Positions 7,701-8,580 of a stretch of DNA of 19,784 nucleotides are shown here, piece by piece. The notes beneath the pieces were generated by a model. That model was not told the origin of the DNA and did not search any database. It was given only the letters and a program-made list of their open reading frames with translations. Every line of letters begins with the position of its first letter. Position 1 is the stretch's first letter. The stretch spans positions 1 to 19,784 of the IMG/VR virus record IMGVR_UViG_2690316049_000007. One strand, given 5' to 3'. Position numbers and translations under genes: made by a program. This DNA comes from a virus (taxonomy: Duplodnaviria > Heunggongvirae > Uroviricota > Caudoviricetes).

Positions 7701-8580
7701 CGTGTTCACCCTCACGAACTTTCAGGTAGGTATTATCGTTAAGCAGGAAATCAAATCCCTTTTTGTGCCAGACAGTTCCGCGTTGATGGTTTGGGCGCTC
7801 TTCGAACATCCATCGGCAATTTTCGCCTACGTAGCTCAAATAATTTCTCCAGTCCTGCATCGTGAACCCATGCCCATCAAGCTGGCGGGTTATCACTCCG
7901 GCTTTGCGCCAGAACGTTCGGATCTGGTTTTTACGCTTGTCATTCAGTGCGCGGATTCTTGGCGCTTCAGGAAGGATTTCGTGGTAAGCATCGACAACAT
8001 CCTGACAGCTAACGGAAGGTTTTTTCTTGTCAGACTTTTTGTCTGCTGTGGCACTCTCTAATACGTCAGTATTAGAGATATTATTTATATTATTGTTTAT
8101 GGACAACCGTTGGACAACCGTTGGACAATCTCCACTGAGAGCCGCGCCATTACTGGTGTTTGCGTTGGACAACCGTTGGACAACCGTTGGACAATTTTTT
8201 GCCTGAAAATCGTCATATTTAACGATTGTAAACAGGCTAAATTTCTTCCCCATCGAGCAAATATTAAGCATCCCTTTCGACTCAAAAGTCCGTAATAAGC
8301 TCCGAACTTTGTTGTCGGGAATGAATGTTTCTCTGACCAGCGACGGGCGTCCAGTTATCATCTGACCGCGATCAACAGTTATCGGACCGATATCCGTATT
8401 GACGACAGTAGATTCGTGATTAGCCTTGAGGATTAAGTGAAGCCAAAGATGTACTGCCTGAGAGTCCTTATAGAGCCTGCTGTCCATAAACTGGCGGTGT
8501 ATAGAGACATACCCCATACTGGATGCCTCCTGATGTTGTACAGGGTTATGCCTGTAATCAGCTAACTTAACGACGCCCAT
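7690..8580 (-). CDS. Replication initiator (lambda O / P22 gene 18 functional analog) containing the ori iterons
   Basis: 296-aa ORF just upstream of the helicase and downstream of cII. Contains 11-bp direct repeats and an adjacent AT-rich tract, as in the lambda ori within O. Protein family not recognised by sequence. Confidence 0.7.
   Translation of the reverse strand: MGVVKLADYRHNPVQHQEASSMGYVSIHRQFMDSRLYKDSQAVHLWLHLILKANHESTVVNTDIGPITVDRGQMITGRPSLVRETFIPDNKVRSLLRTFESKGMLNICSMGKKFSLFTIVKYDDFQAKNCPTVVQRLSNANTSNGAALSGDCPTVVQRLSINNNINNISNTDVLESATADKKSDKKKPSVSCQDVVDAYHEILPEAPRIRALNDKRKNQIRTFWRKAGVITRQLDGHGFTMQDWRNYLSYVGENCRWMFEERPNHQRGTVWHKKGFDFLLNDNTYLKVREGEHDDR
8099..8196. repeat. Origin iterons: two triplets of 11-bp direct repeats (TTGGACAACCG) plus flanking AT-rich tract
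   Basis: 8099-8130 atGGACAACCG TTGGACAACCG TTGGACAAtc; 8165-8196 TTGGACAACCG TTGGACAACCG TTGGACAAtt. AT-rich 8061-8098. Inside the initiator ORF, encoding a repeated CPTVVQRLS peptide. Confidence 0.75.

Follow-up and report, generated by a model that had tools for sequence, protein, structure and literature searches.

Organization of the initiator gene and its internal repeats

The window, i.e., the whole 19,784-nt stretch of viral DNA analyzed in this study, contains a minus-strand replication initiator gene that is followed by a gene for a DnaB-like helicase. The middle of the initiator gene carries iterons, an A/T tract and an inverted repeat. The genes, predicted protein domains and DNA elements are as follows.

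5235–7700, minus strand: DnaB-like replicative helicase gene (Pfam DnaB, 1e-30, and DnaB_C, 2e-53; PHROG 19, E 2e-128)
7690–8580, minus strand: initiator gene ("O"/Sf6 gene 43/phage L gene 18 type), 296 aa, PHROG 345
7693–8016, minus strand: helical C-domain, aa 189–296 (AF2 model)
8017–8205, minus strand: disordered, origin-encoded linker, aa 126–188 (AF2 model)
8206–8580, minus strand: N-terminal winged-helix domain, aa 1–125 (AF2 model)
8055–8078, no strand assigned: perfect inverted repeat TCTCTAATAC-GTCA-GTATTAGAGA, arms of 10 bp and loop of 4 nt, bordering the A/T tract on its distal side
8079–8098, minus strand: A/T tract, A-rich on the gene sense strand (ATAAACAATAATATAAATAA), presumed DNA-unwinding element
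8099–8131, minus strand: iteron block 2, adjoining the A/T tract, three 11-bp units of which the final one is TTGTCCATAAA
8132–8164, minus strand: 33-bp inter-block spacer, variable in sequence and fixed in length
8165–8197, minus strand: iteron block 1, promoter-proximal in gene orientation, gene-strand units AAATTGTCCAA CGGTTGTCCAA CGGTTGTCCAA
8099–8109, plus register: iteron copy ATGGACAACCG
8110–8120, plus register: iteron copy TTGGACAACCG
8121–8131, plus register: iteron copy TTGGACAATCT
8165–8175, plus register: iteron copy TTGGACAACCG
8176–8186, plus register: iteron copy TTGGACAACCG
8187–8197, plus register: iteron copy TTGGACAATTT

The full element spans about 8055–8197 and lies entirely within the minus-strand ORF 7690–8580, in agreement with a first-pass annotation that had placed the array inside an O-like ORF. 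In gene direction, the iterons are followed by the 20-bp A/T tract and then by the inverted repeat. The six 11-bp iterons are all oriented head to tail and form two triplets (8099–8131 and 8165–8197). A 7-nt core, TGGACAA on the plus strand or TTGTCCA on the gene strand, is common to all six copies. The six copies were found at the positions claimed by the first-pass annotation, but the exact 11-mer that it had reported was present in only three of them, and the gap between the triplets, given there as 34 bp, measured 33 bp. TGGACAA occurred 8 times in the whole window where 3.0 occurrences were expected, and six of the eight fell within the 99 bp of the array. Moreover, positions 8100–8129 were identical to 8166–8195 across 30 nt, and Tandem Repeats Finder reported the triplets with a period of 11, 100% matches and scores of 58 and 64.

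The start-to-start distance of the two blocks is exactly 66 bp, which corresponds to six 11-bp registers and to 22 codons. Given the fixed length of the spacer, all iterons share one 11-bp register, roughly on one face of the helix, and the gene stays in frame. The 11-bp unit is translated in all three frames into the peptide CPTVVQRLS, which is present twice. The triplet grouping and the 33-bp spacer can be attributed to this coding context, as this essential gene remains in frame only with steps of 33 or 66 bp.

The 38-nt AT-rich stretch previously delimited at 8061–8098 is indeed poor in G/C (7 of 38 positions; the GC fraction at 8060–8099 is 0.175). Its start, however, cuts the inverted repeat, which had been overlooked. 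The stretch comprises 20 nearly pure A/T nucleotides (8079–8098), and its remainder is the loop with a single arm of the inverted repeat, whose arms are located at 8055–8064 and 8069–8078. Folded as single-stranded DNA, the inverted repeat gave −8.4 and −7.8 kcal/mol (z = −5.7 and −4.3).

The AF2 model of the initiator, which was built on a 37-sequence alignment, had pLDDT values of 73–87 for the N-domain, whose topology is that of a winged helix-turn-helix, 30–50 for the linker and 83–91 for the C-domain; with a 15-sequence alignment, the pLDDT of the N-domain was below 50. The disorder predicted for the origin-encoded region fits a linker that tolerates constraint at the DNA level. Residues 89–101 are the predicted recognition helix in this medium-confidence model. 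A Foldseek search of the PDB for a specific structural relative of the initiator returned only generic winged-helix DNA binders (E 0.05–0.2). The N-domains of the plasmid initiators 4pt7 and 4pql were among these weak matches.

The downstream helicase gene contains a 343-aa intein-like insertion (6003–7031) in its Walker A motif, as determined by alignment to Sf6 gp44. The insertion has weak Pfam matches to Hint and LAGLIDADG, and at the DNA level it was found in none of 50,697 phage records. The replication module would be functional only if this P-loop insertion splices out.

Relationship to annotated phage origins and initiator families

At the DNA level, window positions 7032–9058 were 98.8% identical to Shigella phage Sf6 (AF547987), and the initiator gene was likewise 98.8% identical to those of IME10 and mEpX2. 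The Sf6 record labels 28385–28480, which corresponds to window positions 8100–8195, as [quoted passage not shown]. Within the origin, the window differs from Sf6 by two iteron substitutions, nothing of which is substantial. The same iterons are marked as putative rep_origin in the GenBank records of HK620 and L, and the genome paper of phage L (2020) describes the 11-bp TGTCCAAC repeats as the likely origin (PMC8022706). The iteron element is therefore already known, from the annotations of Sf6, HK620 and L and in print for L. Similar to the window, Sf6 (gene 43), HK620 (O), HK022 (gene 54) and Salmonella phage L/ST64T (gene 18) possess six 11-bp TGTCCAAC repeats, arranged as two triplets, at the same site of the same gene, followed by the same DnaB-like helicase gene; the helicase gene of the window differs by its intein-like insertion. 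The window thus shares with the Sf6/HK620/L-type origins near-identity of DNA, the six-repeat layout and the combination of a PHROG 345 initiator with this helicase. According to the phage L genome paper, the replication region of P22 was replaceable only by the whole L region and not by single genes (Hilliker 1981, cited in PMC8022706). Searches of the literature for published origin activity, initiator binding or unwinding of Sf6/HK620/L-type origins found none, and searching for the repeat sequence itself turned up nothing but unrelated primers.

The HMM search of the 296-aa protein that the first-pass annotation had suggested matched PHROG 345 (E 6e-85), "replication initiation O-like". 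The statement that the protein belongs to no recognized family thus holds for the curated libraries Pfam, NCBIfam and PDB, but not for PHROG. No Pfam family was found at cutoff, DUF7376 being sub-threshold only; no NCBIfam family matched; and a profile search of PDB sequences yielded only chance matches to ribosomal protein S19. The initiator is 100% identical to database proteins called "DNA replication protein". Its C-domain is 25% identical to the C-domain of P22 gp18 (E 2e-4), a distant homology that is clearer for the family member L010.

The protein also does not match lambda O, as the first-pass annotation had recognized: no similarity was obtained by BLASTP (E > 4) or hhalign (probability 0.1%), although very remote homology could escape these comparisons, in which lambda was represented by a single sequence. 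Lambda O itself matched TIGR01610 phage_O_Nterm (5e-39), which the window initiator did not. It also scored against PHROG 345 (5e-17), which includes mosaic proteins, so that this score is no proof of homology between the N-domains.

In their order and polarity, and in their location in the linker-coding part at mid-gene, the parts of the window element match those of lambda and P22, which bears out the earlier comparison with the ori-in-O arrangement of lambda. The lambda origin has the same order of iterons, a tract that is A-rich on the sense strand and a 10–12-bp inverted repeat with a 4-nt loop. The two-domain logic of lambda O, an N-domain for the origin and a C-domain for the partner, is also the same, and for the window family it is backed by a natural chimera (see below). 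Different from the window with its six asymmetric 11-bp units, however, lambda has four internally dyad-symmetric iterons of ~19 bp at a spacing of 20–24 bp. The stoichiometry and geometry of binding are therefore not transferable from lambda. The A/T tract of the window, with ~20 bp, is about half as long as that of lambda. Moreover, lambda O works with the P loader, by which host DnaB is captured, whereas the partner in the window is a phage-encoded DnaB-like helicase. The window thus has the lambda order of parts within an initiator gene and lacks the ~19-bp dyad iterons, homology to lambda O and a P-type loader.

Between L and P22, the gene 18 proteins are only 25% identical (PMC8022706). 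P22 genes 18 and 12 likewise encode an initiator and the phage's own DnaB-type helicase, and the initiator gene also harbors the origin. The P22 tract is also followed by a hairpin (CCCCC-TAAA-GGGGG), while its iterons, four lambda-like units of ~20 bp, differ from the six 11-bp units of the window. Origins of iteron plasmids resemble the window in their direct repeats of the same orientation, winged-helix initiator (whose binding is presumed for the window) and A/T-rich unwinding element. Plasmid iterons are about 17–22 bp long, and plasmid origins usually contain DnaA boxes. In contrast, the window units are 11 bp long and lie inside coding sequence, no Pfam Rep family matched the initiator, and the array has no flanking DnaA boxes.

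Conservation and co-variation among homologs

A total of 151 distinct homologous genes were compared, and diversity by codon position was calculated from 29 representatives with a median nucleotide identity of 69%. Third codon positions had a diversity of 0.067 in the iteron cores, compared with 0.487 in both protein domains (Mann-Whitney p = 2e-8). When third-position diversity was divided by the mean for positions 1 and 2, the quotient was 2.36 in the domains and 1.04 over the origin. By this comparison of sequences, the constraint at the iterons is on the DNA rather than on the protein. TCCA was invariant in all 29 representatives at any codon position. Similarly, the core TGTCCAA was invariant or nearly so in each copy of the 138 unique two-block genes, and CCA occupied all six in-register positions in 148 of the 151 unique genes. 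The diversity of the spacer at codon positions 1, 2 and 3 was 0.37, 0.34 and 0.41, and that of the A/T tract was low (0.10, 0.17 and 0.17, respectively). The partial dyad GTTG-TC-CAAC of the window iterons was considered as a sign of dimer binding and rejected, as most family members break it: 24 of the 29 representatives have A instead of T at gene nt 398 and 464.

The 66-bp block period was found in 148 of the 151 unique genes, and the autocorrelation of divergent loci also peaked at 66. Variants with one, two and three blocks exist, and length variants differ by whole units of 22 aa. The first-pass annotation had named the absence of repeats from near-identical homologs as evidence against an origin; none of the 151 distinct genes was repeat-less, each having at least one block. 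The one-block form was verified in bacterial genomes only, and the ten best records of a BLAST query for it in isolated phages all had two blocks. A one-block copy of Shigella flexneri adjoins an IS4-family transposase gene and may be defective.

Where the core differs, it is altered in all six copies at once, which gives the types TGTCCAA, AATCCAA, GGCCAA, TTCCCAG, GTGCCAA and TTACCAG. The core type sorts with the predicted recognition helix (aa 89–101) in about 7–8 independent types, an association that is confounded with phylogeny and depends on a helix assigned from a medium-confidence model.

The DnaB-like helicase gene follows the initiator gene in every examined family member except one. 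In the exception, the natural chimera L009, an N-domain and origin of the window type are fused to a lambda-O C-domain (62% identity), and a lambda-P homolog (49% identity) is located downstream in place of the helicase gene. The composition of this chimera shows that the C-domain and its partner are exchanged jointly, as a module.

Pairing within the inverted repeat is also maintained among homologs. In 13 distinct variants, both sides were altered at nine of the ten pairs and 92% of cells were paired, a level reached by 0 of 500 shuffles. All 34 altered cells were double Watson-Crick changes, without G-T/G-U intermediates. Given that its pairing is kept by compensatory changes and that hairpins occur at the same location in the unrelated lambda and P22 origins, the inverted repeat is a putative conserved third element of the origin. 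It probably acts at the DNA level, e.g., as a hairpin formed after strand separation or by delimiting the opened region.

Predicted function and alternative readings

The replication origin inside the initiator gene that the first-pass annotation had proposed is the best-supported reading of the locus and the same as that given for Sf6, HK620 and L in their records and in the phage L paper (PMC8022706). Accordingly worded for the window, the region 8055–8197 is very likely the replication origin of an Sf6/HK620/L-type lambdoid prophage, situated in the linker-coding middle of its own initiator gene, with origin activity predicted. Transcription and translation of the early rightward operon would supply the 296-aa initiator, whose winged-helix N-domain may bind the six iterons (core TTGTCCAAC) head to tail, probably with one domain per site. 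We infer that the resulting nucleoprotein array would strain and open the neighboring A/T tract, after which the C-domain would recruit the phage's own DnaB-like helicase, encoded downstream, without a loader of the lambda-P type. Host primase and polymerase would then take over. Any role of the hairpin in these steps is likewise conjectural.

Plasmid iteron arrays serve both initiation and copy control. By analogy with this dual role, the initiator could bind the repeats mainly for regulation, through titration and handcuffing or through control of transcription or translation via its own gene, with the true start site elsewhere in the prophage. The competitor action of extra ori-lambda iterons (PMC3349717) agrees with such regulation, and a block number of 1 to 3 could tune dose. 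However, the A/T tract and hairpin always accompany the repeats, in the order and polarity seen in lambda, whose origin was defined by experiment, and in the annotated origin of P22, and genetic results related in the phage L genome paper place the L origin within the replication-gene region (PMC8022706), so that mainly regulatory binding is quite improbable. Alternatively, the repeats might be a mere coding repeat for a flexible linker, duplicated and kept for the protein, without any function as DNA. The repetition of CPTVVQRLS and the length variants in whole 22-aa units are what such a repeat would produce. But the unit is read in three frames, so that the DNA repeats on a scale three times smaller than the peptide does; all codon positions are equally conserved, most strongly so in the 7-nt core (third-position diversity 0.07 there versus 0.49 elsewhere); disorder is predicted for the stretch of protein encoded here; and the peptides diverge by clade (CPTVVQRLS, NPKEIQGKS, VPDNYQIIT and IPDDSQKIP) while the 3 × 11-bp layout and 66-bp period are kept. 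A pure coding repeat is thus strongly disfavored and has very little chance of being correct.

The array might also be bound by a host protein such as DnaA instead of the phage initiator. The low-affinity DnaA 9-mers of oriC lie 2 bp apart, which gives an 11-bp period, and the short asymmetric head-to-tail sites of the window resemble such arrays; TTGTCCA is also loosely similar to the TTATCCA part of the DnaA box. Nonetheless, no DnaA box with at most one mismatch was found in or near the initiator gene, the four matches in the window all lying elsewhere and at chance level. Moreover, the core varies, together with the predicted phage recognition helix, between phages of closely related enterobacterial hosts, which would be unexpected for a conserved host factor. 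Binding by DnaA is scarcely credible. For the inverted repeat at 8055–8078 only, an intrinsic terminator or another RNA structure serving transcription antisense to the initiator gene has to be weighed. A consensus scan called it terminator-like on the plus strand (stem of 10 pairs, tail TATTATTTAT), the phage L record has a predicted minus-strand "terminator" at the homologous site, and the iteron blocks form sigma-70-like hexamer pairs on the plus strand. These promoter-like matches, however, lie downstream of the stem on that strand and could not feed it. The single terminator-like match compares with 1.1 expected from shuffled sequence, the stem has only three G-C pairs, and a permissive Rfam search of 7000–9500 had no match. 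The double Watson-Crick changes without G-T/G-U intermediates fit DNA symmetry better than RNA, and the lambda and P22 origins have a hairpin at the same place. A terminator is therefore unlikely.

Within the reading as a replication origin, a broader proposal is more tentative. The short inverted repeat with its 4-nt loop might function as a third element in lambdoid origins generally, e.g., a hairpin on the unwound strand that directs helicase loading or priming, and the 7–8 pairs of iteron core and recognition helix might also yield a readable code for a winged-helix initiator; this is possible rather than probable.

As public phage records already annotate the origin element and the 2020 genome paper describes it, the locus itself has little value as a discovery. 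It has some practical value: the module is widespread, and the comparative data on constraint, co-change of iteron and helix, compensated hairpin, one to three blocks and the chimera are suited to swaps of initiator-iteron specificity and to study of the hairpin. P22-like and other lambdoid phages and prophages, Stx-converting phages among them, commonly carry the Sf6/HK620/L-type module; their hosts are E. coli, Shigella, Salmonella, Klebsiella and Serratia.

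Anatomy of the putative origin and its annotated relatives

The early rightward operon of a lambdoid prophage lies on the minus strand of the window. It is listed below together with the element inside it and two genes on the other strand.

9416-10066, plus strand: cI-type repressor gene
Plus strand: N-like gene
9150-9335, minus strand: cro-like gene
8763-9128, minus strand: cII
8567-8728, minus strand: 53-aa ORF
7690-8580, minus strand: 296-aa ORF (initiator)
5235-7700, minus strand: DnaB-like helicase gene, overlapping the 296-aa ORF
Beyond the helicase gene, minus strand: nin-region genes
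8187, plus-strand register: iteron copy TTGGACAATTT
8176, plus-strand register: iteron copy TTGGACAACCG
8165, plus-strand register: iteron copy TTGGACAACCG
8121, plus-strand register: iteron copy TTGGACAATCT
8110, plus-strand register: iteron copy TTGGACAACCG
8099, plus-strand register: iteron copy ATGGACAACCG
8079-8098: A/T tract of 20 nt, nearly pure A/T, 3' of the iterons in gene orientation
8055-8078: perfect inverted repeat TCTCTAATAC-GTCA-GTATTAGAGA, beyond the A/T tract in gene orientation

The iterons have a period of 11 with 100% matches (Tandem Repeats Finder). Their two triplets, or blocks, start 66 bp apart and share an exact 30-nt match between 8100-8129 and 8166-8195. The TGGACAA heptamer occurs 8 times in the 19.8-kb window versus 3.0 expected, and 6 of the 8 are within the 99 bp of the iterons. 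The first-pass annotation had called 8061-8198 a replication origin inside the initiator gene. Its six repeats were found where it placed them in the 296-aa ORF, but the gap between triplets measured 33 bp instead of 34 bp and the element is better bounded as 8055-8197. Its 38-bp AT-rich stretch does contain the A/T tract, but also enters the inverted repeat, which had gone unrecognized. In addition, each iteron block (8100-8129 and 8166-8195) contains a sigma-70-like hexamer pair (TGGACA, 18 nt, GACAAT; 9/12 matches) on the plus strand, antisense to the initiator gene. These pairs may simply follow from the repeat itself, and no sign of their use was found.

Megablast of the region against 50,697 phage records returned 314 matching records, of which those matching at 98-99% included IME10, mEpX2, Sf6, HK542, HK629, and HK75. 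The rep_origin of Sf6, which corresponds to window 8100-8195, is annotated as 'putative; repeat region reminiscent of the phage lambda origin; similar to phage HK620'. A rep_origin is likewise marked at this position in the HK620 record, and that of phage L lists a 'putative origin of replication; ori'. The window element belongs to this Sf6/HK620/L-type putative origin and has essentially the same sequence. With the same element annotated in these three records, the reading of an origin embedded in the initiator gene is supported and was already known. The phage L genome paper (PMC8022706) also takes these repeats to be the likely origin. Genetic results showed that the replication region of P22 can be replaced by the whole region of L only, not by single genes (Hilliker, 1981, cited in PMC8022706). 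The searchable part of the literature yielded no paper that directly tests origin activity, initiator binding or unwinding for this type.

The iterons are constrained as DNA

A total of 257 homologous loci were gathered from genome contigs, IMG/VR contigs, annotated phage records and contigs found through the named homologs that they encode. They yielded 151 unique gene sequences and 29 representatives with <97% nucleotide identity to one another (median pairwise identity 69%). Among the representatives, diversity at codon positions 1/2/3 was 0.23/0.18/0.49 in the protein domains, which is the usual periodicity, while it was 0.21/0.22/0.23 at gene nt 384-527 (window 8054-8197), where codon periodicity was gone. 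At the third position, the TGTCCAA cores had a diversity of 0.067 and the domains one of 0.487 (Mann-Whitney p = 2e-8). Moreover, TCCA was invariant at all six copies in 29/29 representatives, despite the different reading frame of each copy of a triplet. Sequence varied freely (0.33-0.37) in the 3-4 bases that separate neighboring cores and in the 33-bp spacer between blocks, but their lengths were fixed. CCA was found at all six positions of the 11-bp register, with the 66-bp block period, in 148 of the 151 unique genes. Conservation of the cores regardless of frame, together with the fixed register, argues strongly against a repeat maintained purely at the protein level. Near-identical homologs without the repeats, which the first-pass annotation had named as evidence against an origin, were not encountered (0/151 genes), so the origin reading is not refuted.

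Third-position diversity, ~0.5 elsewhere in the N-domain, also dipped to 0.31-0.32 at window ~8461-8518 (gene nt 63-120), the segment encoding HRQFMDSRLYKDSQAVHLW. This dip may be a retrieval bias, as loci were fetched by patterns from those peptides, or could reflect a second overlapping constraint.

The length classes of initiator homologs differed by exactly 22 aa, being mainly 274, 296, and 318 aa; Salmonella had a pair at 277/299 aa. Their DNA contained one, two or three iteron blocks. The one-block version (3 iterons, 274 aa) was found in Shigella flexneri 8401 (locus L247, 1501-2325) and a metagenome contig, and the three-block version (9 iterons, 318 aa) in E. coli (loci L249/L250, 1501-2457). 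These genes were otherwise near-identical. In the three-block form both spacers have one and the same sequence, so that it represents a recent 66-bp duplication. The verified one-block copy of S. flexneri 8401, which may be defective, adjoins an IS4-family transposase gene. All of the 10 best isolated-phage records had two blocks. We infer that iterons are grouped in threes because no step shorter than 3 x 11 = 33 bp would leave the essential gene in frame.

The initiator, its iteron cores and its partners

The first-pass annotation recognized no family for the initiator. This was correct for curated libraries, as Pfam gave only a sub-threshold DUF7376 match, NCBIfam gave none (lambda O matches TIGR01610 at 5e-39) and no PDB chain was sequence-related. 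Comparison with lambda O was likewise null by BLASTP and hhalign. The initiator is assigned, however, to PHROG 345 ('replication initiation O-like', 6e-85). Its database relatives, of which one is 100% identical, number more than 1,600 and are named 'DNA replication protein (O)'. Lambda O matched PHROG 345 at 5e-17 with its N-terminal half, and the initiator matched PHROG 2514 ('DnaD-like helicase loader') at 1e-23 with its N-domain only. Both PHROGs appear to pool mosaic proteins with one domain in common, and their names are thus not evidence of whole-protein homology.

An AlphaFold model from a 37-sequence alignment predicted a winged-helix N-domain (aa ~24-120, pLDDT 73-87; H40-52, E58-62, E65-69, E73-77, H80-85, H89-101, E105-110, E114-119), a disordered linker (aa 126-188, pLDDT 30-50) and a helical C-domain (aa 189-293, pLDDT 83-91). 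The origin sits exactly in the linker-coding segment. Foldseek matches were winged-helix DNA binders throughout (MarR, ArsR, HlyU, CodY, TubR, plasmid initiator N-domains, and ORC), albeit weak (E 0.05-0.2). The C-domain was distantly related to that of P22 gp18 (25% identity, E 2e-4), whose partner is the DnaB-type helicase gp12 (PMC8022706; P22 record).

Where the iteron core was altered, it was altered in all six copies together, and 18 variants of the predicted recognition-helix region sorted cleanly with the cores.

Iteron cores and predicted recognition-helix motifs among initiator-gene loci
Window, Sf6, L, and most other loci: core TTGTCCAAC
L007, L008, L092, L094: core AAATCCAA
L010: core (A/G)GCCAA
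L251: core ATTCCCAG
L252, L254: core GTGCCAAC
L253: core ATTACCAG
Motif TFIPDNK(V/I)(R/K)SLLR: core TGTCCAAC
Motif (G/H)ISD(N/S)KVKSLLD: core AATCCAA
Motif GIPDRRIRTLME: core GGCCAA
Motif ..RIKYL..: core GTGCCAAC
Motif ..R(V/I)QYL..: core TTCCCA / TTACCAG

This co-variation comprises few independent events and is confounded with phylogeny. The pattern is still the one that an initiator/iteron pair, not a conserved host factor, would predict.

Modular exchange was also evident. A natural chimera from Dryocola sp. BD626 (L009, 2953-4583) has an Sf6/L-type N-domain, six ATGTCCAAC iterons, the A/T tract and the hairpin. From the first residue after the hairpin, it continues as a C-domain of lambda-O type (62% identity to residues 162-299 of lambda O), and its downstream gene is a lambda-P homolog (49% identity), with the helicase absent there. 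Five other loci (L010, L251-L253, and L255) encode a P22-gp18-type C-domain followed by a DnaB-like helicase gene. Thus, the N-domain and origin move as one unit and the C-domain moves with its partner, a logic established for lambda O, which supports the roles proposed for the two domains.

The element as a whole is very probably best explained by initiator binding, tract opening, helicase recruitment and a hairpin working at the DNA level. The winged-helix N-domains would sit on the six head-to-tail sites, all along one helix face, and the A/T tract beside them would open; the C-domain would bring the phage DnaB-like helicase, and the hairpin would act as DNA at the bubble edge. The sequences demonstrate the anatomy, the constraint on DNA, the co-variation and the modular exchange; binding, opening and recruitment are inferred. 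That the array is mainly regulatory, binding the initiator with the origin elsewhere, seems quite improbable. A pure coding repeat is very improbable given the low third-position diversity of the cores, and so is an array for host DnaA, as no DnaA box was found in or near the initiator gene and the core varies with the predicted recognition helix.

Layout and logic are those of ori lambda; the first-pass annotation had invoked the lambda ori-in-O arrangement. By three criteria the element falls outside the lambda family: its iterons are 11 bp and asymmetric versus ~19 bp and dyad-symmetric, its initiator N-domain has no detectable homology to lambda O, and its partner is its own helicase versus the P loader. 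The annotated origin in P22 gene 18 (L257, 427-482) has four ~20-bp iterons with lambda-like spacing (20, 24, 23), an A-rich tract in which 14 bp are duplicated in tandem (ACAAAAGACAATAT/A), two copies of TACCCCCT and, after them, the hairpin CCCCC-TAAA-GGGGG.

The inverted repeat and an insertion in the helicase gene

The arms of the inverted repeat varied widely among 13 distinct variants (e.g., TCTCTAATAC, CTCTCTTAC, CTCTTTATC, CTCATTAGG, CTTATTACT, CTCAATACC, ATCATTATC, and ACTTACTACC), but pairing persisted, with changes on both sides in 9/10 pairs and a one-sided (G-T type) change in none. Paired cells amounted to 92%, versus 29-58% with the partner slid by 1-3 columns, and the observed values were reached in 0/500 shuffles. 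The loop was TAAC, TGAC or TAAA, and the distance to the last iteron was constant except in the Dryocola chimera. Folded as ssDNA, either strand gave ~-8 kcal/mol (z = -4.3 to -5.7). In lambda the A-rich tract is immediately followed by an inverted repeat of 12 bp with a 4-nt loop, and the P22 hairpin lies at the corresponding place with the loop TAAA that several Sf6/L-type members share. Early comparisons of lambdoid origins by Grosschedl and Hobom in 1979 reportedly already described this third section. A consensus scan and the automatic annotation of the phage L record both call the inverted repeat an antisense terminator. However, as many terminator-like matches are expected from shuffled sequence, A/T pairs dominate the stem, there is no evident antisense promoter upstream, and strict Watson-Crick compensation suits DNA better than RNA, so that a terminator or RNA structure is unlikely for this part. 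It is only tentatively suggested that the hairpin at the origin edge, with its compensatory changes, functions as a third origin element shared by convergence, and that a natural recognition code could be read from this family.

Compared with Sf6 gp44, the DnaB-like helicase contains an insertion in its Walker A motif:

6003-7031, minus strand: 343-aa insertion, junctions GARPKMGK / AQPLNSRILLADGSW ... YILTHN / TTLYSQ

It had weak Hint and LAGLIDADG matches, begins with Ala, has H-L-W after a block-B-like His and Cys in ECICIMV, and ends in THN followed by Thr, features that we take to resemble those of class 3 inteins. At the DNA level it was present in 0/50,697 phage records and in 17 of 5,426 complete E. 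coli genomes (>=99.8% identity). None of the 8 E. coli RefSeq records listed (e.g., NZ_CP040263 1619438-1620466) had an annotated feature under it, and the annotation pipeline may leave the insertion-bearing helicase gene unannotated or partly annotated. Among phages its nearest relative, at 46% identity, was an insertion in the 'P'/primase-helicase of the Stx2a phages phi24B and Min27.
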